DNA of 64,000 nt from Candidatus Bathyarchaeia archaeon (GTDB lineage Archaea; Thermoproteota; Bathyarchaeia; Bathyarchaeales; Bathycorpusculaceae), in the NCBI GenBank assembly GCA_038883855.1, contig JAVZLH010000002.1, forward strand, positions 32,001 through 96,000, written 5' to 3'. A program made the translations under genes and the position numbers. Shown piece after piece: positions 2,230-60,089 of the stretch (position 1 is its first letter; every line of letters starts with the position of its first letter). The notes under the pieces were generated by a model, which was not told where the DNA came from, did no database searches, and was given only the letters and a program-made list of their open reading frames with translations.

Positions 2230-3537
2230 GTGGGAGAACGGATGAAAGCCTTTAAGCCAGTTCGTGGAATGCGAGATTTCCTAGCAGAAGAAGCGGGATT
2301 AATGCGTTTCATCGAGGAAAAAGCGAGAAAAATAGCCAAAATTTACGGTTATAAAGAAGTTATAACACCGGTTGTCGAATCCTACGAGCTTTTAGCAGCG
2401 AAAATCGGTGAGGAAATGCGGTCGCGAATGTTTGTGTTCAAAGACCTCGGTGGGAGAGATATCGCTTTACGACCTGAGTTTACAGCATCTGTTGCAAGGC
2501 TTATTGCAACAACTCTGAGGACAGAACCCAGGCCGCTTAGAACGTTTTCGTTTGGAAGCGTCTACCGCTACGATGAGCCGCAGAAAGGTCGATACAGAGA
2601 GTTTTGGCAATCAAATTATGAGTTAATGGGCTCAAACACGCCCGAAGCAGATGTTGAAATTTTAATGTTAACCAACAGCTTAATGGAGTCTGTTGGACTG
2701 AAAGATTATGTCTTCAAAATAGGGCATATTGGAGTTTTGAGGGGAATATTTAACCAAGAAGGCCTGGAAGAGAGAACTCAAAACGCTGTTATGCAATTGC
2801 TGGACAAGAAGCAGTACGAGGAAGCGCTTAAAATTGTGGAAGATGCTGGTGTATCGAAAGGCTGTCTAAATATAATGCAAGAACTTGTGAAGCTTAAAGG
2901 CAGAGAAGTTTTTGTCATAGCAGAAAATTTGAGAAAACTTGTAGATGGATACGAAGAAGCCGTTAAAGCCGTAGAAAACTTCTATGAAATTTTAAAGCTC
3001 ATCCAAGAAAGCGAATGTAAAATGGATATTATTGTTGACGCTGGGTTTGCACGGGGACTTGAATACTATACGGGGATCATTTTTGAGGTGTACGTGCCAG
3101 AGTTTGACATAGCCCTAGGCGGAGGCGGAAGATACGACCACCTTGTCGAATTGTTTGGAGGAGAACCAACGCCTGCTGTGGGTGTCGCCCACGGAATAGA
3201 TAGGATAATGTTAGCCATGCAAATGCAAAAAGTCATTGTCGAAAAGACAGAGAGAACCATCATGGTAATACCGGTGGAAAGCAGCTTGAAAGGCGAAGCC
3301 TTGCAGATTGCGCAGATGCTCAGAGCTGCTGATATACCCGTGGAAGTTGAGGTCATGGGGCGTAAGGTGACCAAAGCTTTGGAAGACGCTGATAGAAGAA
3401 AAATGGAGTATGCAATAATAGTTGGAGGAAAAGAGCTAAAGGAAGGGGCGGTTGTTCTTAGGAACTTGAAAAGAAGGGAGCAGAAAACTGTGAAGCTTGA
3501 AGAAATAGTAAAGGAGTTAAAAGGGCATGGCGACTAG
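2230..3537 (+). CDS. hisS: Histidyl-tRNA synthetase (likely start ATG 2242)
   Basis: VRGMRDF, LRPEFTA, YRYDEPQKGRYREFWQ, RGLEYYTG, GGGRYD. Confidence 0.97.
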   Translation: MGERMKAFKPVRGMRDFLAEEAGLMRFIEEKARKIAKIYGYKEVITPVVESYELLAAKIGEEMRSRMFVFKDLGGRDIALRPEFTASVARLIATTLRTEPRPLRTFSFGSVYRYDEPQKGRYREFWQSNYELMGSNTPEADVEILMLTNSLMESVGLKDYVFKIGHIGVLRGIFNQEGLEERTQNAVMQLLDKKQYEEALKIVEDAGVSKGCLNIMQELVKLKGREVFVIAENLRKLVDGYEEAVKAVENFYEILKLIQESECKMDIIVDAGFARGLEYYTGIIFEVYVPEFDIALGGGGRYDHLVELFGGEPTPAVGVAHGIDRIMLAMQMQKVIVEKTERTIMVIPVESSLKGEALQIAQMLRAADIPVEVEVMGRKVTKALEDADRRKMEYAIIVGGKELKEGAVVLRNLKRREQKTVKLEEIVKELKGHGD

Positions 3538-17693: not shown

Positions 17694-18677
17694 ATGACTA
17701 AGTCTGTTGAGATTTCTAGGTTGGAGATTGAGATATTGAGGATTTTGAGCGAGTCAGCTGAGCCCATCGGGTCGAGGTTGCTTCAGCGGGAATTGGAGAA
17801 GAGGGGCTTCTTTCTGAGCGAGAGGACTGTGAGGTATCATCTTCAATTGTTGGAGTTGAAGGGTTTGGTTGCTGGGCATGAGCGAAGCGGGAGAACTCTG
17901 ACTAGTCAGGGGTTGGAGGAGCTTAGCGGAGCTTTGGTTTCTCAAAGGGTCGGCTTTGTTATCACCCGTTTCTTGTCGATGGCTTGTTCCGTTACTTATG
18001 ATTATATCGCTGATTCTGGGATGGTTGTTGCGAATGTTTCCATCGTAGATAAGTCTTTTCATGAGAAAATGATGAATATAGTAAAGGATTTGCATGTTGC
18101 GAATTTGCTTTTGGCTCCTTGCATTAAGATTTTAGATGAGAATGAAGAGTATCAGAACATTGTTGTTCCAGAGGGAAAGATTGCTCTTTTCACAATTTGC
18201 GATCTAACCGTGGACGGGGTGCTTATCCGCTCTGGGATCCCTTTATTTTTTAAGTATGGTGGTTTGGTTCAGATGGTGAATGGTAAACCTTTACGTTTTG
18301 TTGATATGATATCCTATGAGGGGACAACGATTTCTCCGCTTGAGCTTTTCGTTAGAAGCAATCTAACTTCGGTTTTGAAGGTTATTAAAACCGGATCAGG
18401 GGTTTTGCCTGTAGGTATGAGGGAGATTGTGAATGAAGCCAGGGAGAGAACATTTAAAATTGTTTCAACGTTGAAGGATAGGAAGTGGGGAGGCGTTTTG
18501 GCTTTGGGCGTTCCAAACGAGCCTGTGCTCGGCGTGCCAGTATCCATGGACAGGTTTGGGTTATGTATGGTTGGCGGCCTTGCTCTGGCAGCAGCTCTCT
18601 TGGAGGGGGGAGCGGACATTGAAACTTTTGCTTCTTACTGTTTAGTTCCCATCGAGGAAATGAAAAGGATAGGCTGA
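17694..18677 (+). CDS. nrpR: NrpR-family nitrogen regulator (wHTH plus one NRD/DUF128 module)
   Basis: EILRIL..PIGS..LSERTVRYHL HTH, GMVVAN, TICDLTVDGVL..GIP, ISYEGTTISPLELF, VGGL. Confidence 0.88.
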   Translation: MTKSVEISRLEIEILRILSESAEPIGSRLLQRELEKRGFFLSERTVRYHLQLLELKGLVAGHERSGRTLTSQGLEELSGALVSQRVGFVITRFLSMACSVTYDYIADSGMVVANVSIVDKSFHEKMMNIVKDLHVANLLLAPCIKILDENEEYQNIVVPEGKIALFTICDLTVDGVLIRSGIPLFFKYGGLVQMVNGKPLRFVDMISYEGTTISPLELFVRSNLTSVLKVIKTGSGVLPVGMREIVNEARERTFKIVSTLKDRKWGGVLALGVPNEPVLGVPVSMDRFGLCMVGGLALAAALLEGGADIETFASYCLVPIEEMKRIG

Positions 18678-18712: not shown

Positions 18713-20098
18713 TTAATGTCTTAAAATGTATGCATTTATTGATTGTGCTGCTCTTTTTCCTGCTTCTATGGCTTTTATGACCGATGCTGCCCCGCTTACC
18801 ACGTCGCCGCCTGCGAAAATTCCGTTTGACACTTCTAGGGTTTCTTGGTTTACGGTTATTGTTTTGCTCTTTTCTGCAATTTTAATGCTCCGCGTGGTGT
18901 TTGCTGCTGCGATTGTGTTAGGTATATGTTCCGTTGCAATGATGACTGTTTCTGCGCTGTAGAGGAATTCTGAGCCTGGTTCTGGAATTAGCTTTGGTTT
19001 ACCTGTTCTGTCTGGTTGTCCCGGCTTTAACTTTACGAGTTCTACGAGTTTTACCCATTGTTTCTCATCGCCTATAAGCCTGACAGGCTTTGTGGATTGT
19101 TGCAGTTTTACGCCCTCTTCTAACCCTCGCCTTATGTCGTCGGCCCTACCGACAACTTTCCTCTGGTAGAATATACAAGCTTCCTCGGCTCCAAGCCTGA
19201 GAGCAGACCTTGCAGCATCCATCCCCCTTGCGCCCAGTATTGCAACTCTACCTCTAACCTTTATTGGAGTTTTACTTTTGTGGGGGAATAGGCCTGCTTT
19301 CATTAGATTTATTCTCAGTAGGAATTCGTTTAGGGAGTAGACACCGCATAAGTTCTCTCCTGGAATGCCTAAAAGCTTAGGTAAGCCTGCTCCAGTGCCT
19401 AGGAAAACAGCTTTGAAGCCCTCGTCGAAGAGGTCATCTATTGTGAGCGTCTTGCCCACAATAACGTTTGTTTTTATTTCAACTCCAAGCTTTTTAACAT
19501 AATCAATTTCTTTTTTAACAACTTTCTTTGGAAGGCGAAACTCAGGTATGCCGTAGATTAGGACGCCGCCTGGCTCATGCAGTGCCTCAAAAACGACTAC
19601 ATGGTGTCCCTTTTTCGCCAATTCTGTAGCCACGCTTAAACCTGCAGGTCCGCTTCCCACAACAGCCACGCTTTTCCCTGTTGACGGCGATGTTTCAGGA
19701 AGAGCCGCTCCAGTTTCTAATTCCCGATCGGCAACGAACCTTTCGAGGGCTCCTATGTTTATTGGGTCGCCTATGGTGTTTTTGCATCCCATGGCACATA
19801 AGGCTTCTTGTGGGCATACCCTTCCGCAGACTGATGGCATACAGTTTCTCTGCCGGATTTTTTCAGCTGCTTCCCGATAATTGCCTAGTCTGATGAGTTT
19901 TATAAATTCTGGTATGTCAACGTGTAGTGGACACATTTCCACACATAGGGGGCGTGTGCATTGGAGGCATCTTGCAGCTTCGGCTAAAGCCTGCTCTTCA
20001 GAGTACCCTAAAGCCACTTCATCAAAAGTTTTCAAACGCTCTTCAACTGGCAGCTCCGGCATCCTAACTTGTTTTAGTCTAAATTCTAGCTTTTGCAT
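18713..20098 (-). CDS. NfnB/SudA/GltD-like Fe-S flavoprotein with degenerate NADPH site
   Basis: RCLQC..CVEMCP, CGRVCPQE..C, GSGPAG, YGIPEFRLP, FAGGDVVSG; second dinucleotide motif reads LGARGMDAAR. Confidence 0.9.
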   Translation of the reverse strand: MQKLEFRLKQVRMPELPVEERLKTFDEVALGYSEEQALAEAARCLQCTRPLCVEMCPLHVDIPEFIKLIRLGNYREAAEKIRQRNCMPSVCGRVCPQEALCAMGCKNTIGDPINIGALERFVADRELETGAALPETSPSTGKSVAVVGSGPAGLSVATELAKKGHHVVVFEALHEPGGVLIYGIPEFRLPKKVVKKEIDYVKKLGVEIKTNVIVGKTLTIDDLFDEGFKAVFLGTGAGLPKLLGIPGENLCGVYSLNEFLLRINLMKAGLFPHKSKTPIKVRGRVAILGARGMDAARSALRLGAEEACIFYQRKVVGRADDIRRGLEEGVKLQQSTKPVRLIGDEKQWVKLVELVKLKPGQPDRTGKPKLIPEPGSEFLYSAETVIIATEHIPNTIAAANTTRSIKIAEKSKTITVNQETLEVSNGIFAGGDVVSGAASVIKAIEAGKRAAQSINAYILRH

Positions 20099-20925
20099 CT
20101 ACATTCACCTGTTATTTTTAGGGCGACTCTTTCTTCCTCGTCATACATGTGGATTCTGGCTCTGAACTCCTCAAAGTCCACTAGATGAGCGTCAAAGTCT
20201 GGGCCGTCGACGCATGCAAACATGGGTTTACCGCCAACTGTTACACGGCAACATCCACACATCCCTGTTCCGTCGACCATTAAGGCGTTTAGGCTGACGA
20301 TTGTTTTAATCTTATAGGGTTTAGTTGTCTCTGAAATTGACCTCATTAGAGTTGCCGCCCCCACGGCATAAACTAAATCAAACTTTTCCCCAGATTCCAG
20401 TAGGCTTTTTAGAACATCGCTAGCATAGCCCTTCACCCCTTCCGAGCCGTCATCGGTGACAACGTAGAGTTTGTCGCTTACCCCTTTAAGCTGGTCTTTG
20501 AAGATTAACTGTTTAGCTGTTCTGGCGCTGATTATGGCTGTCACGTTGTTGCCTACCTCCTTCATTTTCTTAGCCCTCTCGTAGGCTGCTGCAATGGCAA
20601 CTCCTCTACCGATTACACACGCTTTGCTGTGGATGGTGATTTCGCTTGGTTTTCCCAATGGTCCCACCAGATCGTGGATGACGTCTCCAACTTCTAGTTT
20701 TCCAAGCTCCTTCGTGGACGCCCCAGCCTCCTTAAACACTAGGGTTATTATGCCTTCCTTAGGATCCCAGTCTATCAGGGTTAAGGGGATTCTTTCACCA
20801 TCCTCATCCACCCTTAAAATTACGAATTGCCCTGATCTTGCCTTTCTCGCGATCAATGGCGCCCGCACTTTTATGAGCTTAACCTCTGGAGCCAACTCTT
20901 CCTTAAAGACTATTTCATTCGCCAT
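20086..20925 (-). CDS. NfnA/SudB/PyrK-like 2Fe-2S flavoprotein with altered NAD site
   Basis: GQFVILR, ERIPLT, GPLG, TDDGS, MVDGTGMCGCCRV, ACVDGPDF. Confidence 0.9.
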   Translation of the reverse strand: MANEIVFKEELAPEVKLIKVRAPLIARKARSGQFVILRVDEDGERIPLTLIDWDPKEGIITLVFKEAGASTKELGKLEVGDVIHDLVGPLGKPSEITIHSKACVIGRGVAIAAAYERAKKMKEVGNNVTAIISARTAKQLIFKDQLKGVSDKLYVVTDDGSEGVKGYASDVLKSLLESGEKFDLVYAVGAATLMRSISETTKPYKIKTIVSLNALMVDGTGMCGCCRVTVGGKPMFACVDGPDFDAHLVDFEEFRARIHMYDEEERVALKITGECRCKS

Positions 20926-21575
20926 GATTGATCACTCCAACCTTTATAAAAGCCCCTAGAAATCTCAACGACAACATCCCTTAGGAATTTTCCTGCATAA
21001 AGCAGGTCTGAGAAAACCCTTTTCAAATCTGTTCTTTCACCAAACAAGTTGTGCCTTTCCAGCGCTGCATCTAGAATTTCCTGAACAACCGGCATTTTCT
21101 GTCCATAAACTTTTCTTGCAACATTCCAACACCTGATAAAGTCGGAGTGGTCTAAACCTAGACTGAAATATTCCATTAGGACGGCATATGCCAGTTCTTG
21201 AGGTGAAAGCTTCCTTGAAAGCTTCGCCTCCCAGTAAGCCTTACCTTCATCAACCTTACCGGTGCTGTAAAGGTAGCTCCAGTAAATATATGAATAGAAG
21301 ATATCCACGGTTCTGTCTTGAAACTCTGGACAACTAACTCCAGGGTAATGTCCCCTCGCACATACAGCAACCCCGTCTATGTCTGTTCGATCCTCAAAAT
21401 TTTTACATTCTATGCAAAACCTTGTCTTTGACGCTGTAGCTTTAGCGCCTTCAAACCGGTCTTGAAATTCTTGGCAGGCAACACCCGGGCAATGTCCTCT
21501 GGCACATAAGACCACGCCGTCTATCTCCATCCTATCCTCAAAATTTTTGCATTCAACACAAAATCTGGAAACCAT
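20910..21575 (-). CDS. Unknown protein with two tandem Cys/His repeats and a helical C-domain
   Basis: RFCxECKNFEDRxxIDGVxxCARGHxPGVxCxEFQDR occurs twice; tightly spaced within the operon. Confidence 0.8.
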   Translation of the reverse strand: MVSRFCVECKNFEDRMEIDGVVLCARGHCPGVACQEFQDRFEGAKATASKTRFCIECKNFEDRTDIDGVAVCARGHYPGVSCPEFQDRTVDIFYSYIYWSYLYSTGKVDEGKAYWEAKLSRKLSPQELAYAVLMEYFSLGLDHSDFIRCWNVARKVYGQKMPVVQEILDAALERHNLFGERTDLKRVFSDLLYAGKFLRDVVVEISRGFYKGWSDQSWRMK

Positions 21576-21584
21576 ATTTATCGC

Positions 21585-23189
21585 CTAAGCCAATATGCTT
21601 TCCAGAACTCCGTTGGACGCTTCCTCAGGCAATGGTATGCCAGTAACCTTTGAGGCCCTTTCCGATAACGAAACTAAATCGCTTCTATCCAGTAGATTGA
21701 GTTTCCATTTCCTTGCCCCGGCCATTAGCTGCTGCAGGCCAACCTTTATCCTATCCAGATAAGTGTAGAGTCCAACTGCGCCCCATGGCACCTCTTTAAA
21801 CTTGTCGCCCAGCATGTTTTGCAGGTCTGGAACACCTATAAAAAATTTCTCAGGCATACTGCCAAAAAGTTCTTCGAAATACCTTGGTAACAGCCCTTTC
21901 TGAGCCAAATCAGCAAAGTGGGATGATTTCATAACCGCAGTTAAGGGTGCCCTGCCCATTAATATTGCCTTCACATACGGTCCATCGCCAAAGTTGCTCA
22001 TCGCAATAGCTTTAAATATTTGAGTCTCGTCTATGAAGCCTCCCGCCATAACTATGTCAGGAACAAACCTCCCCTTCTTACTGAGAATTTCTGCACATTT
22101 CAAAACCTGTGCCTCTAGATAAACTGTTGGCGTGCCCATTTCGTTCATCATTGGAACAGGGCTCATCCCTGTGCCTCCGCTGGCACCGTCAAAGACCACG
22201 TAGTCGATTTTAGCTTCGGAAGCCACTTTCATGGTAAAGGCAACAGCTTCTGGACTGTAGGCTCCTGTTTTTAAACTTACCTTCTTAGCACCTTGCTCTC
22301 TTAGCCATTCGACATCTTCAACGAAGCCTTTCTCTGTTGGCATGCCGACGCGACTGTGCCTTTCAAAGGTTTTAAAGACTCCTTGTTTGAAGGCTTCCTG
22401 AACTTCGGGATCTTCAGGGTCAGGTATGACTATGTATCCTCTTTTTTTCAGCATTATAGCCTTTTGCAGATCGCCAACTCTAACTTCGCCTCCAATTGCT
22501 TTGGCTCCTTGACCCCACTTCCGCTCGATGATGTTTACCTCAAGCTTTGAAATCGCGTAGACATCAACGCCAAGCCTCTGATCCTCAACGTTGGTTTGCA
22601 CCGCAATATCACCATATTTCCCATCCCAAAACCTTCTGAAAGCCTCAACTCTCCTTTTAAGCTCGTGTGAAAAGACAACTTTGCCGCTTTCAATTCGGGC
22701 CTCCGGATCCATTCCACAAACGTTCTCTCCAATGGTCACTATTATTCCTGACAAAGCTCCGCCCACCGCTAACCCATCCCAGTTTAGCCTAGCTACATCT
22801 GTTGAACCGTAGGCGCCTATTATTAGAGGGATCTTAAGCGGTACACCTCCAACTTTTGTTTCAATTTCAACGTTTGGAAATATCGCCACATCAGAGTTTT
22901 CATCTATGCCGTTAGCACCCAAAAGCCTCGATTGAATATTAAAATGAGACCAGTCTAAGCCGTAGTCCTTCAAAGCCCCAGCCGTGCTATTTCCAAACAT
23001 GTTGGGATCGGGATAAAGGGCTTCCCTACCTCTAAACGCCGACAATGAAACTTCGCATAGAACTGGGCATTCTTTAACGCATATCGGACACAAACCGCTG
23101 GTTGGGCAGACATCTTCAACCCTAGCCCTAGTTCTAGTTGTCGACATGGAGTTCAAATACGAGGAGTTTCTATGAATTGGGAACGGCAC
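21585..23189 (-). CDS. Stand-alone FMN-binding glutamate synthase family protein (no amidotransferase domain)
   Basis: N-terminal CPTSGLCPICVKECPVLC, IGENVCG, KWGQGAKAIGGE, DGASGGTGMSP, AGG. Confidence 0.88.
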   Translation of the reverse strand: MPFPIHRNSSYLNSMSTTRTRARVEDVCPTSGLCPICVKECPVLCEVSLSAFRGREALYPDPNMFGNSTAGALKDYGLDWSHFNIQSRLLGANGIDENSDVAIFPNVEIETKVGGVPLKIPLIIGAYGSTDVARLNWDGLAVGGALSGIIVTIGENVCGMDPEARIESGKVVFSHELKRRVEAFRRFWDGKYGDIAVQTNVEDQRLGVDVYAISKLEVNIIERKWGQGAKAIGGEVRVGDLQKAIMLKKRGYIVIPDPEDPEVQEAFKQGVFKTFERHSRVGMPTEKGFVEDVEWLREQGAKKVSLKTGAYSPEAVAFTMKVASEAKIDYVVFDGASGGTGMSPVPMMNEMGTPTVYLEAQVLKCAEILSKKGRFVPDIVMAGGFIDETQIFKAIAMSNFGDGPYVKAILMGRAPLTAVMKSSHFADLAQKGLLPRYFEELFGSMPEKFFIGVPDLQNMLGDKFKEVPWGAVGLYTYLDRIKVGLQQLMAGARKWKLNLLDRSDLVSLSERASKVTGIPLPEEASNGVLESILA

Positions 23190-23222
23190 ATTTCAACCCT
23201 CACACCATTCGATCAATTGCCA

Positions 23223-23240
23223 TCGGTAACCTATTGCCGA
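23223..23240. promoter_or_regulatory. Putative NrpR-type operator
   Basis: TCGGTAA-CCTA-TTGCCGA palindrome ~8 nt downstream of the minus-strand BRE/TATA (GAAACGCTTAAAT). Confidence 0.6.
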
Positions 23241-23431: not shown

Positions 23432-23698
23432 TTAAGGCGGATGGAAAATGGATATTAGAGTTTCTGTATGAACGACATTTGGGTGCTGCTCTACCATTTC
23501 ATAAATTATTTTCTTGAGTTCTTCAAGACTTTCAGCTTCGATGACGATTACGGCGTCAAACCTTCCCAAGACCGAATTAGCCATTTTAACACCCTTTATC
23601 CGTCTAGACCGCACAATCTCTTCGGATGTGCCAGGCTTCATAGTGACCATGACAAAGGCCCTTAAAGCTTTCTTGCGCAAATCTTTACTCGAAGCCAT
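23432..23698 (-). CDS. Stand-alone Lrp/AsnC ligand-binding (RAM) domain protein
   Basis: AFVMV..KPG, SVLGRFDAVIVIEA, VVHTETLI; no HTH. Confidence 0.85.
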   Translation of the reverse strand: MASSKDLRKKALRAFVMVTMKPGTSEEIVRSRRIKGVKMANSVLGRFDAVIVIEAESLEELKKIIYEMVEQHPNVVHTETLISIFHPP

Positions 23699-23724: not shown

Positions 23725-23952
23725 TTAAAGGGCTAGCGAGGTTTCTGTATGGATTATGTTTGGGTCTTTCTCGATGACCTTGTAGACTATTTCGTTTATG
23801 TCTTCAAGCTTCGGTGCCTCTATGATTACTATGGCGTCGAATCTTCCGTAGATTGAGTCGGCTTGAGCAACTTCTTTAACGTTGTTTTTTATTCGTTTGA
23901 CAACTTCCTCTGAAGTTCCTGGCTTCGTTTTTATGAATATGTAGGCTTTCAT
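23725..23952 (-). CDS. Stand-alone Lrp/AsnC ligand-binding (RAM) domain protein
   Basis: KAYIFIKTKPG, SIYGRFDAIVIIEA, IIHTETSL; no HTH. Confidence 0.85.
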   Translation of the reverse strand: MKAYIFIKTKPGTSEEVVKRIKNNVKEVAQADSIYGRFDAIVIIEAPKLEDINEIVYKVIEKDPNIIHTETSLAL

Positions 23953-25448: not shown

Positions 25449-25544
25449 GCTAATACACCATTTAGAATCCCGTATATTTTATTTCACAAACATATAAATG
25501 TTTTCCTAATTGATGGAAAAAATTTATATATTTTTTTAATTTAA

Positions 25545-26453: not shown

Positions 26454-26610
26454 TAAAAACCTAGCGGTGTTAATTGAAGTTGTTAAAAATGATGATAATT
26501 CCTATTTTTCGATTAGGGACACAGCCGAGAATAAAATACTTTTTTCTTCAGCTTAAGTCGCCAGTCATGTAGAACGGTTGAAATGTTTATATACCGGAAA
26601 AATTAGGTAA

Positions 26611-26628
26611 TAGGCAACCATATGCCTA
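26611..26628. promoter_or_regulatory. Putative NrpR-type operator
   Basis: TAGGCA-ACCATA-TGCCTA perfect palindrome over the predicted TSS, downstream of TTTATATA at 26586-93. Confidence 0.65.
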
Positions 26629-26640: not shown

Positions 26641-27087
26641 ATGGATACGAAACGAGTTTACGTCCATGAAGAACTTTGTATGGGCTGCGGGTTGTGCGAA
26701 GTCTACTGTGCAGTTCAGCATTCAGAATCCAAAGATCTTATCAAGGCTTTCAGGAGAGAAACTCCCAAACCAGTCACTCGCATTAAACTACTTCAAGAAA
26801 AGCCTGTATCGTTTCCAGTTCAATGTAAAAACTGCAGCGACCCTTTATGCGTTTCTGCATGCCTATCGGGTGCCATGCGCGTTGACGAGGAAACAGGGTT
26901 AATAATACACGATGAAGAAAGATGCATTGGATGTTTGACGTGCGTCATAGTTTGTCCCGTAGGCGCCGTTAGAATCAACCCAAACAACAGCAAAGTTGTA
27001 ATCAAATGTGACCTGTGCCAAGAAGCTGAAACACCTGCTTGTGTAAAGTTCTGTCCTAATGAGGCGCTAACCCTTGGGGAGGTATAG
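26641..27087 (+). CDS. 4Fe-4S dicluster (CooF/DmsB-like) electron-transfer protein
   Basis: CMGCGLCEVYC, CKNCSDPLCVSAC, CIGCLTCVIVCP, KCDLC..PACVKFCP. Confidence 0.92.
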   Translation: MDTKRVYVHEELCMGCGLCEVYCAVQHSESKDLIKAFRRETPKPVTRIKLLQEKPVSFPVQCKNCSDPLCVSACLSGAMRVDEETGLIIHDEERCIGCLTCVIVCPVGAVRINPNNSKVVIKCDLCQEAETPACVKFCPNEALTLGEV

Positions 27088-27091
27088 TGTG

Positions 27092-28378
27092 ATGACCGAG
27101 TATGTGATCATAGGTTGCTCAGCCGGAGCGGTAGGAGCTGTTGAAGCCATAAGAGAATTAGACCCAGTGGGTGGTATTGCTGTAATAAGTGAAGAACCAG
27201 TTCCCGCTTATTCGCGTCCAATGATAGGCAAATACCTCAGCGAAGAAGTAAACGTAGAAAGTATGATTTTTCCATCAAAGAATTTCTGGGAAAAGCAAAA
27301 AGTTAAGCTATTCCTCAGGAAGAAGGCGGTTAAACTTGACTTGACCCGGAAAAAGGTTGAGCTTGAAGGGGCTGAAAAAATCGGTTTTGACAAACTTCTG
27401 ATAGCAACAGGAAGCAAGCCAATCATACCAAACATCGAAGGCGTAACAAAAAAGGGAGTACACACCTTTACTAGAATAGCTGATGCCGAGCATATAAAAG
27501 AAACTATTCATGTTGTCAAAGCGCAAAAAGCAGTTGTCGTAGGCGTAGGCCTCGTCGGTATAACCGTCACAGAAGCGTTAGACAAGCTTGGATTAAAGGT
27601 CACCATTGTTGGGCGCAGAGACCGTGTTCTCAATCAAGTCCTTGATCAAAAGGCAGCGAAAATCCTTGAGGAAGCAATGCAAAAAGAAGGGGTATGCATC
27701 GTGAAAGGTCGTACAGTTCAACGTGTTTTAGGGAGAAAAGATGACGATGACATTGTTGGCGGCGTCCTTCTTGACGATGGGAGCTCGATAGAATGTGACT
27801 TAGTTGTGTTTGCCGTTGGTGTTGTTCCAAGAACGGAGCTTGTTGTCAACACTGAATTGAAAATCAACAATGGGATTCTGACCGATAGGTTTATGCAAAC
27901 CAGCATTCCCGACATCTACGCTTGCGGGGATGTAGCTGAAACATACGACTTCGTCAGCGGGAAACAGCGAGTTCTTGCACTATGGCCCTTGGCCAGAATA
28001 AGCGGTAGAGTTGCAGGCTATAACATGGCTGGGCTAAAATTTGAATACCAAGGTGGGACATCTATGATCGCCATCAACCATTTTGGAGTTCCAATAATTT
28101 CTGTTGGCTTAACTACCCAAAACGGAGATTTCGAAGGTTATGAAACGCTGGTTTTCCATGATCAAGAAAGAAGGATTTACAGGAAAATTATACTAAAAAG
28201 CGGAAAAATTATGGGTATGACGCTTATTGGAGACGTTGAAAAAGCTGGCGTAATTTTCCACATTATGAAAAACAAAGTTAATGTTGAGGATTTCAAACAC
28301 AAACTCAGAGCCGACAATTTCAGTTTGGCGTCTCTACCTGAAACTTTAAGAAAACAACTTATCTCGGGGGTTTTGTAA
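27092..28378 (+). CDS. FAD/NAD(P)-dependent oxidoreductase (NirB/rubredoxin-reductase-like)
   Basis: IIGCSAG, LLIATGS, GVGLVG, IYACGDVAE; ORF track starts at 27074, ATG at 27092 more likely. Confidence 0.88.
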   Translation: MTEYVIIGCSAGAVGAVEAIRELDPVGGIAVISEEPVPAYSRPMIGKYLSEEVNVESMIFPSKNFWEKQKVKLFLRKKAVKLDLTRKKVELEGAEKIGFDKLLIATGSKPIIPNIEGVTKKGVHTFTRIADAEHIKETIHVVKAQKAVVVGVGLVGITVTEALDKLGLKVTIVGRRDRVLNQVLDQKAAKILEEAMQKEGVCIVKGRTVQRVLGRKDDDDIVGGVLLDDGSSIECDLVVFAVGVVPRTELVVNTELKINNGILTDRFMQTSIPDIYACGDVAETYDFVSGKQRVLALWPLARISGRVAGYNMAGLKFEYQGGTSMIAINHFGVPIISVGLTTQNGDFEGYETLVFHDQERRIYRKIILKSGKIMGMTLIGDVEKAGVIFHIMKNKVNVEDFKHKLRADNFSLASLPETLRKQLISGVL

Positions 28379-29526
28379 TGAATATCACCACTCTCCTAAA
28401 CAATCCTTACAAGGACGACAAAGTCATCGATGCTTGTGGGCTCTTCGGTATGATGGACCTTACTGGGAGACGTTTTGGGTCAAAGGACCCTGTTAAAGCC
28501 ATCTCAAACATGCGTGAAAGGGGAAATGGCCTTGGAGGAGGCTTTGCCATCTACGGGCTTTACCCCGAACACAGGGATGACTACGCATTCCACATAACGT
28601 ATTTGAATACAGAAGCAAAAGAAAAAGTTGAAAGGCTTTTATCACAAAACTTTGACGTTGTCGAAGCCGAAGAAATACCCGTCAATCCAAAAGCGAACGT
28701 TTGGAATCCTCCTCTAATTTGGCGATATTTCCTCCAGCCAAAGAAGGGTGCTGTCAAATGTCAACAAGACGATGAATATGTGTTCTATAACGTTATGAAG
28801 ATCAATACCGAGTCAAGTGGCGCCTTTGTATTTTCCAGCGGAAAAAACATGGGCGTATTCAAGGGTGTAGGCTTTCCAGAGGATATCGCCGAGTACTTCT
28901 GCCTAGACGAATACGAAGGTTACATGTGGATCTGTCACGGGAGGTTTCCGACAAATACTCCAGGCTGGTGGGGCGGTGCTCACCCATTTAGCATCCTCGA
29001 CTGGGTGGTCGTGCATAACGGAGAACTGTCAAGCTATGGAGCCAACCGAAGATTCCTCGAAATGTACGGTTACCACTGCACAATGCAGACCGACACGGAA
29101 GTCATGGTTTACGCATTAGACTTGCTCGTGAGGAAACAGAAGTTGCCAATGGAAGTTGCCGTAAAAATATTGGCTCCGCCTCTATGGATCGAAATCGACG
29201 CCATGGAACCAGGCAAAAGAGAGTTATATACGGCGTTACGCCAAAGCTATGGCAGCTTACTAATGAATGGGCCCTTTACCATAATCGCAGCCCGTACAGG
29301 AGAAATGATTGGCTTAACGGACCGCATAAAGTTAAGACCGCTTACAGCGGGCATTAGGGGAGATTTGCTCTTTTTGTCTTCCGAAGAATCCGCCATGCGG
29401 GCAGTTGCACCCAATTTGGATAAAGTTTGGGGCCCTCGTGGAGGCGAACTCGTAATTGGGAGACTTAAAGAGATGAGAGCTCCAGAAATTGTGGCTCCTG
29501 AGGTGGGAAGATCAAGAGCTATATAG
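28378..29526 (+). CDS. Glutamate synthase glutamine amidotransferase subunit (GltB1, class II GATase)
   Basis: DACGLFG, ERGNGLGGG, HGRFPTN, HNGE, TDTE, DRIKLRP. Confidence 0.92.
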   Translation: MNITTLLNNPYKDDKVIDACGLFGMMDLTGRRFGSKDPVKAISNMRERGNGLGGGFAIYGLYPEHRDDYAFHITYLNTEAKEKVERLLSQNFDVVEAEEIPVNPKANVWNPPLIWRYFLQPKKGAVKCQQDDEYVFYNVMKINTESSGAFVFSSGKNMGVFKGVGFPEDIAEYFCLDEYEGYMWICHGRFPTNTPGWWGGAHPFSILDWVVVHNGELSSYGANRRFLEMYGYHCTMQTDTEVMVYALDLLVRKQKLPMEVAVKILAPPLWIEIDAMEPGKRELYTALRQSYGSLLMNGPFTIIAARTGEMIGLTDRIKLRPLTAGIRGDLLFLSSEESAMRAVAPNLDKVWGPRGGELVIGRLKEMRAPEIVAPEVGRSRAI

Positions 29527-31022
29527 AGCCAGAATTTATTGTCGAGCGAGACGACCAGAAGTGTATACGATGTAAGGTTTGCATAAACCAGTGTACCTAC
29601 GATGTACACTATTATGATCCCGAAGACGACGTTATCAAAAGCCTTAACGAAAATTGTGTAAACTGCCATCGTTGTGTGGTGTTCTGCCCCACGAAAGCGA
29701 TAACGATAAAGAGGAACCCGACGCGGTACACTGAGAACTGGCATTGGACCCAAGAAGTCATAACAGCAATTAAGAAACAGGCTGAAAGTGGTGGAGTAAT
29801 CTTAACAGGTATGGGATGTGACAAGCCCCATTACACTTACTGGGATAAAATTCTTCTCAATGCCAGCCAAGTGACTAATCCATCAATAGACCCGCTAAGA
29901 GAACCGATGGAGCTTAGAACATTTTTAGGCTCAAAACCTGATAAGCTTGAACTTGAATTGGAAAGCGGTGATTTAGTATTAAAAACGAAGTTGTCGCCCC
30001 AACTGTGCGTTGAAACTCCGATTCTCTTTGCAGGAATGTCCTATGGAGCTGTAAGTTTCAACGTTCACCTAGCATTGGCTCGAGCCGCTGCGCAATTCGG
30101 CACTTTAATGAATACTGGCGAAGGTGGTTTAGACAAGCGACTATACAAATATGGAGACCACGTAATTGTTCAGGTGGCTTCAGGACGCTTCGGTGTCAGC
30201 CCAGACTATTTAAATGTGGGTGCAGCAATAGAAATTAAAATTGGGCAAGGAGCCAAGCCAGGAATAGGCGGCCATCTTCCGGGAGAGAAAGTCACAGAAG
30301 ACATATCCAAAACACGCATGATTCCGGTCGGAACGGATGCTTTATCGCCAGCACCCCAACATGATATATACTCAATTGAAGATTTGCGTCAACTAATCTA
30401 TGCCTTGAAAGAGGCTACAGATTATACCAAGCCTGTTGGCGTCAAGATAGCCGCTGTACATAACTCTGCCGCCATCGCAAGTGGCATGGTTCGAGCCGGA
30501 GCCGACATAATCGTTCTTGATGGAGTTAGAGGTTCAACCGGCGCGGCACCTAAACTCATTCGGGATAATGTCGGCATCCCCATAGAGTTGGCTTTAGCTT
30601 CGGTGGATCAACGCTTAAGGGAGGAAGGCATTCGCAACAAGGCATCCATAATAGTGTCAGGGGGCATAAGAAGCAGCGCCGACGTTGTAAAGGCAATTGC
30701 CTTAGGAGCAGATGCTGTGTACATTGGCACAGCTGCCTTGGTAGCTATTGGCTGTACTTTGTGCCAGAAATGTTACACAGGGAAATGTCCATGGGGCATA
30801 GCAACTACGGATCCATGGATTTCTAAGCGTGTTAATCCAGACATCGCTACAAGGAGACTTGTTAACCTTCTGCAATCGTGGAGTCTCGAGATCAAAGAAA
30901 TGATGGGCGGCATGGGCATAAACTCCATTGAAAGCCTCCGCGGCAACCGTTCACAACTTCGTGGCGTGGGATTAACAGACATCGAACTTAAGATTCTAGG
31001 AATAAAAATGGCTGGTGAATGA
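29511..31022 (+). CDS. Glutamate synthase FMN subunit (GltB2) with N-terminal 2x[4Fe-4S]; apparent ATC start
   Basis: Frame extends upstream of GTG 29676 as IKSYIEPEF..CIRCKVCINQC..CVNCHRCVVFCP; MSYG, NTGEGG, QVASGRFGV, KIGQGAKPGIGGHLPG, CTLCQKCYTGKCP. Confidence 0.9.
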   Translation: MKSYIEPEFIVERDDQKCIRCKVCINQCTYDVHYYDPEDDVIKSLNENCVNCHRCVVFCPTKAITIKRNPTRYTENWHWTQEVITAIKKQAESGGVILTGMGCDKPHYTYWDKILLNASQVTNPSIDPLREPMELRTFLGSKPDKLELELESGDLVLKTKLSPQLCVETPILFAGMSYGAVSFNVHLALARAAAQFGTLMNTGEGGLDKRLYKYGDHVIVQVASGRFGVSPDYLNVGAAIEIKIGQGAKPGIGGHLPGEKVTEDISKTRMIPVGTDALSPAPQHDIYSIEDLRQLIYALKEATDYTKPVGVKIAAVHNSAAIASGMVRAGADIIVLDGVRGSTGAAPKLIRDNVGIPIELALASVDQRLREEGIRNKASIIVSGGIRSSADVVKAIALGADAVYIGTAALVAIGCTLCQKCYTGKCPWGIATTDPWISKRVNPDIATRRLVNLLQSWSLEIKEMMGGMGINSIESLRGNRSQLRGVGLTDIELKILGIKMAGE

Positions 31023-31025
31023 AAA

Positions 31026-31799
31026 ATGAAACCCGCTAAACGTTCAGGGCAAGACTCCATCAGGGATGATGTTGCAATCATAAACGCTGAAGGTATGCAT
31101 TACCAAGACTTGCACTTTCTAATAAAATCCCACAGTAACTCTTCTAGGAGGATAGACATCTACAACGTTAACGGACAAAGATACATAGGCACCAGCCTCA
31201 AAAATAACGTTGAACTTCACCTGTACGGAACACCCGGCAACGACCTCGCAGCCTTTATGGACGGTCCCACAATTTACGTCCATGGCAACGCACAGGATGG
31301 CGTTGGAAACACCATGAGCAATGGAAAAGTTGTTGTTTATGGACGCGCAGGAGACATAGTCGGGTATTCCATGCGAGGTGGCAAAATCTTCATTCGTGAT
31401 GACGCAGGATACAGGGTTGGCATACACATGAAAGAGTATGGCAACCAAAAACCCATCCTCGTAGTCGGGGGCACTGCTCAAGACTTTTTAGGAGAGTATA
31501 TGGCTGGAGGAATCTTAGTCATTTTAGGACTAACATTGAAAGATGGAGAAACTCACAAAGCTAAATTTGTAGGCACCGGGATGCATGGCGGCGTAATGTA
31601 TATCAGAGGTCAACCGGCACATACAGGAAAAGAGGTAAAGATCACAGAGCTTGAAAAAGATGACGAGGCCGTGCTTAGACCCATCATTGAGGAGTTTTGC
31701 AACTACTTCAACTTCGACGTTGACACCATACCCCTAAGAGAATTTAAAAAACTGATTCCGCTTTCAACTAGACCATACGGAAAACTTTACGCCTACTAA
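31026..31799 (+). CDS. Glutamate synthase GXGXG subunit (GltB3)
   Basis: GQRYIG, GTPGNDL, repeated G..M.GG beta-helix units, GTGMHGG. Confidence 0.92.
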   Translation: MKPAKRSGQDSIRDDVAIINAEGMHYQDLHFLIKSHSNSSRRIDIYNVNGQRYIGTSLKNNVELHLYGTPGNDLAAFMDGPTIYVHGNAQDGVGNTMSNGKVVVYGRAGDIVGYSMRGGKIFIRDDAGYRVGIHMKEYGNQKPILVVGGTAQDFLGEYMAGGILVILGLTLKDGETHKAKFVGTGMHGGVMYIRGQPAHTGKEVKITELEKDDEAVLRPIIEEFCNYFNFDVDTIPLREFKKLIPLSTRPYGKLYAY

Positions 31800-46090: not shown

Positions 46091-47083
46091 CTATACTATT
46101 TGGATGAATCTCCCGATTCCCTTTTTAACAGCCTTTTCATAAGCAATTTTTGCTGTAACTGCGTCTTGGATAGCTAATCCAGTCGAATCAAAAACTGTTA
46201 TTTCATCTTGCGTTTCTCTCGGACGTTTTAAACCAGCAACAATCTCGCCCAATTCAGCGTATACATCTTCTTTCTTCAATATTCCTCGGCTTAATGGAAC
46301 ATTAATTTCCCCACTATGCGCAGCTTGTTCCAAATCATCTACAACTATCTTCGCCCTTTTCAAAATATTGGGATCAATCTCCTCTTTTCCTGGGGCATCT
46401 GCACCTATACAGTTGAAGTGCATTCCCGGAGAAACCATGTCGTTCATTACCAAAGGTTGTCTTGATGGAGTAGTTGTTACAACAATATCGGCTCCTTCAA
46501 CTGTTTCTCTTATATTTTCCATAGGGATTATTCGGCATAAGTTGCCGTATTTCAGTCGCATTTCAGAAGCAAATTCAACACTAGTTCCATGAAGACCCCA
46601 CACTCTTACTTCCTCAAATTTTTTGTAGATTTCAAGGAGGCTAGCTAGTTGAGTTCTCGCTTGGGCGCCGGCTCCAACGAGAGCTACAATTTTCGAGTCT
46701 TTCCTCGCCAAATATTTTGCAGCAACTCCTCCAGTAGCTCCAGTTCGCATGGCTGTTATTGTTTTTCCGCCCATTATTGCCATTGGAAAGCCATTTTTGG
46801 GGTCTACTAGGATTATTATAGCCATAACTGTGGGAAGGCCGTATTTTATTTGGTTGTCCGAGTGGGCGTTCACTATTTTAACTGCCGATATGTCTAAATT
46901 TTCAAGATAGGAAGGCATTGCCCGTAAATCACCGTTATATCTTTTGTAGAAGAGGTAGATTTTCTCCGGCATTTGGACTCGTTTTAACCCCTTTTCTTTA
47001 AAAGCTTCTTCAACTGCTCTCATAACCTCTTGCATTGAAAGAAGCCCTTTAACTTCCTCGTCGGTTAACACTAGAGTCTCCAA
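46091..47083 (-). CDS. ala: Alanine dehydrogenase (ornithine cyclodeaminase/mu-crystallin family)
   Basis: GDLRAMP, VKIVNAH..N, MRTGA, GAGAQ, IGADAPGKEE, FDSTGLAIQD. Confidence 0.85.
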   Translation of the reverse strand: METLVLTDEEVKGLLSMQEVMRAVEEAFKEKGLKRVQMPEKIYLFYKRYNGDLRAMPSYLENLDISAVKIVNAHSDNQIKYGLPTVMAIIILVDPKNGFPMAIMGGKTITAMRTGATGGVAAKYLARKDSKIVALVGAGAQARTQLASLLEIYKKFEEVRVWGLHGTSVEFASEMRLKYGNLCRIIPMENIRETVEGADIVVTTTPSRQPLVMNDMVSPGMHFNCIGADAPGKEEIDPNILKRAKIVVDDLEQAAHSGEINVPLSRGILKKEDVYAELGEIVAGLKRPRETQDEITVFDSTGLAIQDAVTAKIAYEKAVKKGIGRFIQIV

Positions 47084-47203
47084 ATTTTTCCCTCAAGTTG
47101 CAAAGGCTATTTTCTACTCAAATATTTTTGGGTAGTGGAGACATAGATTTCATGAATAAAATTATAAACCACGTTCTACGGTGTTAACGTATGGCTCTTC
47201 AAG

Positions 47204-48916: not shown

Positions 48917-49102
48917 ACCATTCCCCTCTTGCCAAATCCTGTTGCTCTAACTCATACCGTCGAGAAATAAATAAGCATTCTGTTAAAAGAGGGCATTACA
49001 AGCCAGCTTTGTTAGAGGCGCTGGCATTAGGTGATTTAAGTTTAAAGTTATGTAAGTGTTTCCCTCTTCCATTAGCAAAAACTTAAACGTTAGAACCAAT
49101 AA

Positions 49103-49933
49103 TTGTTGACCAGTTTGGTGATGAAAATGGATGATGACATTGCCGTTATAGGCGCTGGTGTCATTGGCGGCGCAATTGTTAAAAGCCTCATTAAAAGTGG
49201 TTATAAAGGCAAAATCACAGCTACCAGGAGATCAGTTGAGAAACTGAAAGAACTTGAGGAACTTGGGGCCTCCGTGACGAGCGATAACAAGAAAGCAGCA
49301 AAAGGAGCCGAAATAGTTTTTATATGTGTGAAGCCCGGAGATGTTGCAAAGGTGTTGAAAGAGATAAGTGAAGAGGTAAAGGGGAAGCTTGTAATTTCCA
49401 CTGCTGCAACTGTTCCGTTAAAATTTTATAAGCAAATAGTGCCGGAAGCACGTTTTGTTAGAAGTATGCCTAACGTGGCGATTCTAGTGCAAGAATCTTT
49501 TACAGCATATGCTTGTGATGAAGATGTGAAGCCAGAGGACAAAGAAAAGGTGAAAAAAATCTTTAACGTTATGGGAATATACGAAGAAGTTGAAGAGAGA
49601 TACATGGACGCCATAACAGCCTTAAGCGGCAGCGGCCCAGGATACATCTCAATAATAATAGAAGGGCTTATGTACGCTGGCTTAAAGGTCGGCTTGCCCA
49701 GAGACCTAGCGCTCTACAGCGCGGCTCAAACGGTTTTAGGAACAGGCAAACTCATTCTAAAAACACGCGAGCATGTTGCGAAAATAAAGGACATGGTGAC
49801 AACGCCTGGAGGAACAACCATTGAGGCGATATATGAGCTTGAAGGAAGCCAGATCAGGCCAGCTTTGATGAGGGCTGTTGAAAAAGCGACCGAAAAATGT
49901 CAAAAGATTAGGGAAAATTTCGGAATGAACTGA
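49103..49933 (+). CDS. proC: Pyrroline-5-carboxylate reductase
   Basis: IGAGVIG, CVKP, RSMPN, ALSGSGP, VTTPGGTT. Confidence 0.95.
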   Translation: MLTSLVMKMDDDIAVIGAGVIGGAIVKSLIKSGYKGKITATRRSVEKLKELEELGASVTSDNKKAAKGAEIVFICVKPGDVAKVLKEISEEVKGKLVISTAATVPLKFYKQIVPEARFVRSMPNVAILVQESFTAYACDEDVKPEDKEKVKKIFNVMGIYEEVEERYMDAITALSGSGPGYISIIIEGLMYAGLKVGLPRDLALYSAAQTVLGTGKLILKTREHVAKIKDMVTTPGGTTIEAIYELEGSQIRPALMRAVEKATEKCQKIRENFGMN

Positions 49934-49998
49934 AAAAGCGAAGCTTAATTTTATTAATAACTAGCATGATATAGTGTTCTCTTCAAGAGGTAAGAATC

Positions 49999-59550: not shown

Positions 59551-60089
59551 AGGAATTCCTCCGCTTTATCCTCAAACAGTTTAATGGCTAAATCCCGCGT
59601 CACTTCCTCTGGAGTGCGCGAATAAAGCCTGTAGGCATGGTCTCCCCTCGAAACTTTCTTTAAAACGTTCCACCCGCCTTCTTGACAAACCTTTACACAT
59701 TGGGGGTCGCCGCCGCACAAATCACAGATCAAAATATGCTTTCCACTCGGGTGCATGTGCGGAACCTTGCCCGGACAAGCCTCTATGCAGCTTCCGCAAG
59801 CCGTGCAAGCCTCCGCATCAACTAAAACAGCTCCAGTTTCTCTGCTAACTGAAAGGGCGTTTACTGGACACGCATTTACACAGGGATAATCTTCACATTG
59901 AACACAGAAATGCGGAAAATCAACCCCTGGAACAAGCATGAAAACCCTTATTCTAGAAGCCTCTGGCCAAACACAGTTCTCGTGAAAAAGCGAGCATTCA
60001 ATTTCGCATTTTCGGCAGCCACTGCATTTTGAAAGTTCTCTCGCAATCCATATGGCTTCCTTTTTTTCAACCAACTCCAAAACCTCCAC
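59547..60089 (-). CDS. 4Fe-4S polyferredoxin partner subunit of the W-oxidoreductase
   Basis: Four Cys clusters; ATGA-coupled to the large subunit. Confidence 0.9.
   Translation of the reverse strand: MEVLELVEKKEAIWIARELSKCSGCRKCEIECSLFHENCVWPEASRIRVFMLVPGVDFPHFCVQCEDYPCVNACPVNALSVSRETGAVLVDAEACTACGSCIEACPGKVPHMHPSGKHILICDLCGGDPQCVKVCQEGGWNVLKKVSRGDHAYRLYSRTPEEVTRDLAIKLFEDKAEEFL

Follow-up and report, generated by a model that had tools for sequence, protein, structure and literature searches.

The operon described here lies on the minus strand (23189..18713) of a stretch of 64,000 nucleotides from the genome of a Candidatus Bathyarchaeia archaeon (contig JAVZLH010000002.1; the whole 64-kb stretch is termed the window, and coordinates without a locus number refer to it). 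It consists of four intact open reading frames (ORFs), which are tightly packed in a single row in the ORF list of the window. The first gene (21585..23189, GTG start) encodes a 534-residue flavin mononucleotide (FMN) TIM-barrel protein, a stand-alone paralogue that has diverged deeply from the glutamate synthase FMN domain. It is followed by a gene for a Cys-rich protein of 221 residues that belongs to no known family (Cys221; 20910..21575), a gene for a 279-residue NfnA/NfnS/SudB-like subunit with flavin adenine dinucleotide (FAD) and [2Fe-2S] sites and an altered nicotinamide adenine dinucleotide (NAD) loop (20086..20925), and a gene for a 461-residue NfnB/NfnL/SudA/GltD-like subunit with a shortened NADPH loop (18713..20098), all on the minus strand. 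The latter two proteins are referred to as variant NfnA and variant NfnB. The FMN and Cys221 genes are separated by 9 nt, the Cys221 and variant NfnA genes overlap by 16 nt, and the variant NfnA and NfnB genes overlap by 13 nt, in agreement with an earlier note, made from the letters of the DNA, that had described four tightly coupled genes in intact frames. The FMN ORF begins at 23189, at the same start point as in its homologues, and position 23240 belongs to the promoter region. All four proteins have their nearest relatives among sequences named Bathyarchaeota or Bathyarchaeia, and the window carries the archaeal host markers aTrm56, TFIIE, tRNA intron endonuclease and aldehyde:ferredoxin oxidoreductases. 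The four genes can be regarded securely as one conserved operon of a hot-spring lineage of Bathyarchaeia.

Variant NfnB matches the profiles Fer4_20 (132 bits) and TIGR01316 (490 bits), and was aligned residue by residue to the large subunits of Thermotoga maritima Nfn (4ylf_B, E-value 1.4e-126) and Pyrococcus furiosus NfnI (5jca_L). It retains the GxGxxG FAD site as GSGPAG and the eight conserved cysteines of two [4Fe-4S] motifs (RCx2Cx4Cx3CP and GRVCPQE..C..C), and these cysteines are conserved among the relatives that share its altered sites. In the Rossmann fold, the GxGxxA loop and the arginines of the YRR segment bind the dinucleotide and its 2'-phosphate. The canonical form of this NADPH site, a G[GA]GN[VT]AMD loop together with YRR, is absent from variant NfnB. 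VAILGA--RGMDAAR is aligned against VAVIGAGNTAMDAAR of 4ylf_B and 5jca_L, which corresponds to a two-residue deletion in the GxGxxA loop; YQR---KVVGR is aligned against YRRTEREMPAR, which corresponds to a three-residue deletion in the loop after strand β2; and IATEH takes the place of the canonical AIGQ. The changes listed in the earlier note were thus confirmed (GARGMD, YQR and IATE beside intact Fe-S cysteines and GSGPAG).

Analysis of the relatives of variant NfnB, taken as the best 120 clusters at 90% identity, revealed both deletions in 54 clusters (P0001-P0050, P0053-P0055 and P0101; 64-94% identity), whereas the other 66 are canonical (GGGNVAMD, YRRxxxEMPAR and AIGQ). The 54 variant clusters come from several archaeal orders and are assigned to Bathyarchaeia, Nezhaarchaeales, Methanomethylicia or ‘Nitrososphaerota’; the substitutions are not private to this genome. 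In a maximum-likelihood tree of 117 rows, from which four fragments shorter than 400 residues were dropped and which is rooted at the midpoint only, the full-length variant rows (51/51) fall on one side of a branch with a Shimodaira-Hasegawa-like approximate likelihood ratio test support of 100, next to the canonical pair P0051/P0052 as sister. There are 19 columns that are at least 90% conserved within each group yet differ between the variant and canonical groups, and 15 of them sit within residues 253-357, the NADPH domain; the changes concentrate in the nicotinamide domain, which supports the earlier note's placing of the loss at the nicotinamide sites. The columns of the FAD and Fe-S sites are invariant in both clades alike. 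Within the variant clade, Arg291 is conserved at 98%, and Gly292, Val316 and Gly317 at 100%, and the mean majority frequency of the three motif windows (0.89, 0.87 and 0.84) compares with a whole-protein value of 0.81. One position looks relaxed: the second Arg of YRR gives way to Lys, Tyr, Trp or Gln in 9/54 variants, against 66/66 canonical clusters with Arg. Residues Gly289, Asp294, Arg297, Arg301, Tyr311 and Arg318 of the NADPH domain are invariant and common to the canonical enzymes.

The small subunit shows a comparable alteration. Variant NfnA matches PRK06222 (373 bits) and DHODB_Fe-S_bind (40.5 bits) and aligns to P. furiosus 5jca_S with an E-value of 1.7e-88. Its FAD region (GERIPLT) and its Asp(Cys)3 [2Fe-2S] region (DGTGMCGCCRV...FAC) are retained and align to both 5jca_S and 4ylf_A. 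The Gly-rich loop and the GP residues of the small subunit form the NAD(H) site in proteins of the FNR family. At this site VIGRGVAIAAAYERAK is aligned against MIGGGVGVAEIYPVAK, and AVGA against AVGP, of 5jca_S, so that the loop reads GRGVAIAAAYE; the earlier note had reported GRGVAIAA and GA with the D-C-C-C ligands kept, and this alignment agrees. For comparison, 80 loci (L-numbers below) were taken from the 589 confirmed stretches of a genome scan for the FMN gene. The variant NfnA of locus L054, which is 77% identical and ends at a contig edge, has the same GRGVAIAAAYERAK and AVGA. The canonical combination of GGG[VT]G..YP and GP is present in 5jca_S, 4ylf_A and the protein of L010 (GGGTGIASVYPIAR, GGGTGIAS..YP, and AVGP), and is lacking in the proteins of the window and L054. 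The proportions of nonsynonymous and synonymous differences (pN/pS) against L054 are 0.10/0.81 for the FMN gene, 0.24/0.94 for Cys221 and 0.14/0.72 for variant NfnA; with pN at 0.10-0.24 and pS at 0.72-0.94, the test of dN/dS below 1 asked for at the outset points to purifying selection. The corresponding omega of variant NfnA is about 0.06, a rough value since synonymous sites are saturated.

Altogether, the altered site of variant NfnB, whose conservation equals or exceeds that of the remaining protein, is fixed in a new form, with no drift. The comparison of sequences indicates that the altered pockets are old, have a single origin and have since been held fixed. The description of both NAD(P)H sites as ‘eroded’ was therefore the wrong word for a rebuilt and fixed loop, whereas the idea of repurposing gains from the clade structure and the selection data. 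The variant pair has presumably lost the use of NAD(P)H.

The second gene product, Cys221, has two N-terminal Cys/His repeats of the pattern CxxC-x14-C-x3-H-x5-C, followed by a helical C-terminal domain. Each repeat carries four conserved cysteines and one histidine (C6, C9, C24, C34 and H28; C54, C57, C72, C82 and H76), with the consensus FCxECKNFEDRxEIDGxxxCAxGHxPGxxCxxFQD. All 62 homologues are unnamed or labelled ‘hypothetical’. Cys221 has no match in Pfam or NCBIfam and no usable match in the ESM Atlas, and a Pfam search at E-values up to 1 over 32 members of the Cys-rich family gave only sub-threshold zinc-finger-like noise. In the AlphaFold2 model, the predicted local distance difference test score (pLDDT) exceeds 90 over roughly residues 90-215 and stays under 50 in the repeats, and a Foldseek search with it against the PDB returned 0 matches at an E-value of 0.001 or lower. 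Cys221 is thus a new protein family. Short forms without the helical domain exist (P0300-P0302, and a 127-residue protein at 2788-3171 (+) of L038 with two Cys repeats only). In L038 this short gene lies directly upstream of a ferredoxin gene and heads a ferredoxin-reductase-GATase-GltB-GXGXG-FMN operon. In some Bathyarchaeia (nine loci), the FMN gene is preceded by 180-220 bp, on the same strand, by a gene for another Cys-rich protein of about 112 residues (cluster C13) without a Pfam match, for example at L071 9469-9807, L059 9433-9765 and L044 3038-3403.

The FMN protein is related to the glutamate synthase family only remotely. It matches PF01645 with 35 bits against a cut-off of 20.4, over residues 291-397 only, and its relatives reach 64 bits; together with its predicted FMN TIM-barrel fold this places it within the family. 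It has no NCBIfam match, and searches against the PDB gave only chance matches with the single sequence (E-value about 0.7) and only designed TIM barrels with the family profile. In the ESM Atlas, its matches were solely clusters named ‘FMN-binding glutamate synthase family’. Comparison by hhalign of a 31-sequence family alignment with the canonical GltB-FMN protein of the window gave a probability of 96.9 and an E-value of 1.4e-10 over 321 columns, pairing KWGQGAKAIGGE with KIGQGAKPGIGGH and DGASGGTGMSP with DGVRGSTGAAP. The AlphaFold2 model (pLDDT 84.5, predicted template modelling score 0.87; residues 1-39 poorly modelled) retrieved FMN TIM barrels in Foldseek. Alpha-hydroxy-acid oxidases gave the best E-value (6dvi_A, 6.8e-11, TMq 0.43), and the highest coverage and TMq were found for the glutamate synthase GltS (1ofd_A, E-value 6.2e-10, TMq 0.51). 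Judged by Pfam, hhalign and the modelled fold, the FMN protein is a remote relative of GltS.

The family conserves the motifs QGAK, GGE and DG..GGTG.SP, and carries a specific insertion of about 40 residues (PDPEDP...ERHSR). The internal cluster cysteines of GltS, which follow the barrel and form the [3Fe-4S] site, are absent, and canonical GCTLCQKCYTGKCPWG aligns to the Cys-less MKSSHFADLAQKG. Near the N-terminus, the family has a nearly invariant Cx2Cx3Cx3C motif (C34, C37, C41 and C45), which presumably serves as an Fe-S entry point for electrons. In Synechocystis GltS numbering, we take the 2-oxoglutarate site to comprise the Gln and Lys of QGAK, the Gln of GGQ and a downstream Arg. The corresponding Gln227 and Lys230 are conserved in the FMN protein, the GGQ position is Glu235, and the insertion follows, leaving the equivalent of the Arg without an assignment. 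That 2-oxoglutarate is the substrate is a guess from genomic context.

A word-indexed search with the FMN protein gave 7940 matches, the best 120 of which are all at least 71% identical. The 80 scanned loci encode FMN proteins of 56-84% identity from Bathyarchaeia, Methanomethylicia, Nezhaarchaeales, Hadarchaeota, Geothermarchaeales, Archaeoglobi and Methanomassiliicoccales, and the ORF caller recovered the gene in 77 of them. The other three genes are far less widespread. In 70 loci the sequence extends at least 700 bp beyond the FMN gene, and one of them carries the three-gene module; because 69 of these 70 lack it, it is not required by the FMN enzyme and must be accessory, and the earlier suggestion that the FMN enzyme is wired to the Nfn-like pair does not hold as a dependence. 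In L054, the FMN gene is followed by a Cys221-type gene and then variant NfnA, where the contig ends; in the more distant L047, it is followed by a Cys221-type gene, where the contig likewise ends; and in L010 a canonical NfnAB pair lies about 6 kb from the FMN gene. A tblastn search of all 80 loci with the window proteins found module genes in no FMN locus beyond these three and L038 with its short Cys repeats. In a rough FastTree of FMN proteins, module-bearing and module-less genes are interleaved. The longest contigs of variant NfnB, Cys-rich and FMN clusters have identical sizes several times (21489, 133724, 24813, 27515, 2446706 and 321952), and those of Cys221 and variant NfnB clusters ten times, which points indirectly to co-location of the latter two.

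The genomic neighbourhood of the FMN gene belongs to nitrogen metabolism. In the window, a gene of the nitrogen repressor family (nrpR; 17694..18677, plus strand; PF01995 246 bits and HTH_12) converges on the operon, with 35 nt between the nrpR and variant NfnB stop codons. Upstream of the operon lie two tandem stand-alone ORFs of the AsnC/Lrp ligand-binding (RAM) domain (23432-23698 and 23725-23952, minus strand; 88 and 75 residues), which may be small amino-acid sensors, then glnA, an lrp gene and a complete split archaeal glutamate synthase (GOGAT) operon (26641..31799, plus strand). The latter encodes a ferredoxin, a pyridine-nucleotide disulfide reductase, GATase_2, the Glu_synthase FMN domain and GXGXG (PF01645 478 bits, PF00310, PF01493, PF07992 and Fer4). 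The class II amidotransferase and the GXGXG domain that would complete a glutamate synthase are thus absent from the studied operon and present in this separate one, at 28378-31799. Because this full split GOGAT lies only 3.4 kb away, the studied operon does not represent the glutamate synthase of this organism with the amidotransferase missing.

Across the loci with a called FMN gene, glutamate dehydrogenase (GDH), nrpR, glnA or split-GOGAT genes lie within 7 kb of it in 29/77, and directly adjoin it in 27 of these. An ELFV-type GDH of about 416 residues follows the FMN gene by 36-245 bp on the same strand in 18 loci, an arrangement of many Bathyarchaeia (L024, L027, L028, L033, L041, L043, L067, L069, L073, L077-L079 and six more), and 12 of the 18 have a second GDH-family gene of about 590 residues about 1 kb upstream on the other strand. 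The nrpR gene directly adjoins the FMN gene in L002, L009, L021, L023 and L047; in L002, L021 and L023 it converges right after the FMN gene, at the exact site that the module occupies in the window. L013 and L038 have the GOGAT gene order of the window with a 534-residue FMN paralogue at the 3' end. In the GOGAT operon of L013, from Archaeoglobaceae, the GXGXG gene and the FMN paralogue are separated by a class I glutamine amidotransferase gene (PF00117; 9003-9686, plus strand), which may point to another glutaminase partner.

The promoters of the two operons also resemble each other. An operator-like motif, GGCAATAGGTTACC, lies at 23225..23238 on the minus strand, close to the 3' side of a TATA-like TTAAATCTTTAT and about 35 nt before the FMN start, and a second copy, GGTAATAGGCAACC, lies at 26606..26619 on the plus strand, 21 nt upstream of the first GOGAT-operon gene and just downstream of a TATA-like box. 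The closest FMN genes have an upstream GGYAAY repeat in common, likewise just 3' of a TATA-like box. The derived pattern GGYAAYNGGYWACC occurs exactly twice in the window, once ahead of each of these two operons; a tolerance of one mismatch raises the count to 3, where 0.67 would be expected and 2/100 shuffles reach as many. In the 80 loci (1,336,009 bp) there are four exact matches, and 4/4 lie 3-107 nt upstream of FMN genes (L001 9881, L002 9943, L021 945 and L023 9947), a count that is partly circular because the pattern was derived from the same upstream regions. The match at the GOGAT promoter is independent of that derivation. The neighbouring nrpR is a candidate for the regulator that acts at this motif. 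The NrpR operator of methanogens is GGAA-N6-TTCC. This operator was rejected as the motif at work here: it has one unrelated match in the window (36529), 79/100 shuffles do as well, and nothing consistent with it was found in ten FMN upstream regions with one mismatch allowed. Neighbours and the motif in common with the GOGAT operon fit an FMN enzyme that belongs to nitrogen and glutamate metabolism. Of the earlier label ‘GltB-type flavoenzyme’, the glutamate or nitrogen role thus finds backing in the 29/77 loci and the promoter motif, and the kinship with GltB is remote, at 35 bits to PF01645.

Some further features of the window deserve mention. The divergent glnA-lrp intergenic region contains a perfect palindrome, TTTTCC-N8-GGAAAA, at about 25501-25520. 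The disulfide reductase of the GOGAT operon carries a Rubredoxin_C domain. A ferredoxin-like stretch found by tblastn at 29577-29765 (plus strand) lies upstream of and overlaps the annotated start (29676) of the canonical GltB-FMN ORF, and this gene may start earlier and include an N-terminal Fe-S domain. Genes for ornithine cyclodeaminase, pyrroline-5-carboxylate reductase, a class IV aminotransferase and two aldehyde:ferredoxin oxidoreductases, one with a polyferredoxin, lie at 46091-51831 and 57682-60089, a set that fits an amino-acid-fermenting lifestyle.

Comparison with characterised systems places the variant pair closest to canonical NfnSL/NfnAB. They share two adjoining, overlapping genes, the [4Fe-4S] motifs, the L-FAD site, the D-C-C-C [2Fe-2S] site and the S-FAD region. 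They differ in that the GxGxxA loop is two residues shorter here, YRR plus three residues is reduced to YQR, GGGVG is changed to GRGVA and GP to GA, and a Cys-rich protein gene and an operon with an FMN enzyme are added. P. furiosus NfnII/Xfn (5vj7) is an Nfn paralogue changed in the same region of the small-subunit Gly-rich loop, where, according to one account, a loop and an Arg block the NAD site and leave a monofunctional enzyme without bifurcation (PMC12506544); another source treats the GltD-like module and likewise describes the NADH site of NfnII as obstructed (PMC8097209). However, the large-subunit NADPH loop of NfnII is canonical (GAGNTAMD in 5vj7_A) and the protein is an NADPH:ferredoxin reductase, whereas both sites are altered here. 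A further paper gives Nfn motifs and lists NfnIII and other archaeal homologues as functionally unstudied (PMC6405883), and another takes all Nfn homologues as bifurcating from their motifs (PMC6085437). For the terms tried, a literature search in an open library returned no Nfn clade without the NADPH fingerprint and no study of the FMN family.

In NADPH-glutamate synthase (GltB/GltD), as here, a GltD-like subunit that carries FAD and a pair of [4Fe-4S] clusters is encoded beside a GltB-type FMN domain that keeps QGAK and DG..GGTG.SP. Unlike GltB/GltD, the studied operon has no amidotransferase, central or GXGXG domain, its GltD-like partner lacks the NADPH fingerprint, the N-terminal Cys4 motif replaces the internal cluster cysteines, and a PyrK-like subunit and a Cys-rich protein are added. 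The split glutamate synthase of the window shares the genomic island, the promoter-proximal motif and a homologous FMN domain, but its GATase_2, GXGXG, ferredoxin and disulfide-reductase-type partner have no counterpart in the studied operon. F420-dependent glutamate synthases (FGltS) were predicted from similar gene contexts by Susanti and Mukhopadhyay (PMC3448663). They resemble the present case in the swap of the electron-input module on a glutamate synthase FMN subunit, and P0374 (800 residues) provides such a fusion, in which a 2x[4Fe-4S] ferredoxin and an F420-binding FrhB_FdhB domain are joined to an FMN domain that carries the family insertion (38% identity over query residues 30-403). 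In contrast, none of the operon proteins matches FrhB_FdhB, and no FrhB/FsrN-type F420H2-oxidising subunit stands beside the FMN subunit; FGltS itself is a prediction with no characterised enzyme. Finally, dihydroorotate dehydrogenase B (PyrK/PyrD) and dihydropyrimidine dehydrogenase also feed an FMN TIM barrel through a PyrK-like FAD/[2Fe-2S] subunit or a GltD-like module. Membership in these families was rejected, as variant NfnA scores 102.8-130.2 bits on four PyrK NCBIfam models with cut-offs of 219-314 and the FMN protein has no DHO_dh-type Pfam match.

On this evidence we propose, with a probability of roughly 0.4, that Cys221 and the remodelled Nfn pair together supply electrons, as a module specific to this lineage, to a GltB-like reductase under nitrogen regulation. 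The FMN protein would be a stand-alone FMN TIM-barrel reductase descended from the synthase domain of glutamate synthase, one that usually works without the other three genes. These three would constitute an accessory module made of a Cys/His-repeat protein and an NfnS/NfnL-derived FAD/Fe-S pair, in which early indels and substitutions rebuilt the pyridine-nucleotide pockets before the new shape was held fixed. The module would then act as an alternative electron-supply chain, with the four proteins presumably in physical association and electrons presumably flowing towards the FMN enzyme. Other lineages presumably rely on direct reduction of the FMN enzyme by ferredoxin, and one lineage has a fused F420-type module. 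The FMN enzyme, which has no amidotransferase of its own, may form glutamate by reducing an imine derived from 2-oxoglutarate and ammonia. The rebuilt L-FAD pocket might have no donor at all, or might receive electrons from the Cys-rich protein, from F420H2, or from NAD(P)H bound in a new way. This mechanism draws on gene order, context and the analogy to GltBD, PyrK/PyrD and the FrhB fusion.

Several points weigh against this proposal. The FMN enzyme is independent of the module in most lineages, as the 69 module-less loci illustrate, and even close relatives of 76-84% identity (L001, L002, L021 and L023) have nrpR or another gene directly after the FMN gene, so that the adjacency in the window could reflect insertion into a conserved FMN-nrpR pair. 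A short Gly loop is no proof of lost NAD(P)H binding while Arg318 and other NADPH-domain residues are invariant, and the fixed loop Arg could contact a phosphate. The comparison of variant NfnA rests on one other sequence, that of L054. The substrate pocket of the FMN protein differs from that of GltS, as about 40 residues are inserted and a Glu takes the place of the Gln or His found after GG in GltS, and by E-value the search with the modelled fold puts alpha-hydroxy-acid oxidases as high as GltS.

Some of these points would suit a variant pair that still uses a pyridine nucleotide through an atypical pocket, perhaps as a non-bifurcating ferredoxin:NAD(P)+ oxidoreductase like NfnII that is co-expressed with nitrogen-assimilation genes simply to keep reduced ferredoxin and NAD(P)H in balance. 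The NADPH domain is kept in full with its six invariant residues, the 98% fixed loop Arg could meet a phosphate, and NfnII offers the precedent of a paralogue that lost one site and kept a simple reductase role (PMC12506544, PMC8097209). We nevertheless think this unlikely, given that the GxGxxA fingerprint is broken by the two-residue deletion, the YRR segment is both altered and shortened with its second Arg replaced in the nine variants mentioned, the small-subunit loop is changed too, and the strictly co-occurring Cys-rich protein is left without a role. It also seems improbable that the Cys-rich protein and the variant pair are an independent three-subunit oxidoreductase that landed between the FMN gene and nrpR with no functional tie to the FMN enzyme. 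Such an origin would account for the mutual overlap of genes 2-4 with gene 1 set off by 9 nt, for the module-less FMN-nrpR arrangement of L002, L021 and L023, and for the disparity between 7940 FMN matches and the 54 variant NfnB and 62 Cys-rich clusters. Yet the long Cys-rich gene directly follows the FMN gene wherever flanks are visible (the window, L054 and L047), a count that is biased because the loci were fetched through the FMN gene. An old linkage is suggested by L047 with P0296/P0042, which stand for the second-deepest branch of the variant clade, and in L038 a GOGAT operon begins with the short Cys-repeat gene and has an FMN paralogue at its end. That the altered genes are incipient pseudogenes or assembly errors is hardly credible, and nothing beyond the lost textbook motifs speaks for it. 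Their frames are intact, the very same indels recur in 54 clusters (64-94% identity) that span several archaeal orders, a branch with support of 100 sets the variants apart, and pN is far below pS against L054; private decay is refuted by the common deletions, the conserved columns, the tree branch and pN/pS. Repurposing fits far better than pseudogenisation because the frames are intact under purifying selection and the changes are clade-defining and concentrated in the nicotinamide domain.

The electron-supply proposal has a bolder extension, which we rate as a long shot. The four proteins might form a nicotinamide-independent, Nfn-derived flavin/Fe-S machine with the Cys/His-repeat subunit, or a hydride carrier other than nicotinamide, for instance F420H2, in the rebuilt pockets. 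The high-potential branch of the once bifurcating FAD would drive an FMN enzyme that forms glutamate from ammonia without an amidotransferase, and the low-potential branch would reduce ferredoxin. If true, this electron-bifurcating glutamate synthase would represent an enzyme class new to nitrogen assimilation.

Flavin-based electron bifurcation has its simplest model in NfnSL, all known forms of which, to our knowledge, use NADPH at the bifurcating FAD. The variant clade keeps the bifurcating-type FAD and all Fe-S clusters, rebuilds the NADPH pocket and gains a putative metal-binding subunit, and it is thereby a test case for alternative donors and acceptors of flavin electrons. The stand-alone GltB-like FMN protein recurs, highly conserved at 56-84% identity, over Bathyarchaeia, Methanomethylicia, Hadarchaeota, Archaeoglobi and Methanomassiliicoccales, and to know which reaction it catalyses would close a gap in the picture of how archaea handle nitrogen and glutamate. 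The operon as a whole suggests an unstudied route of electrons into nitrogen assimilation.

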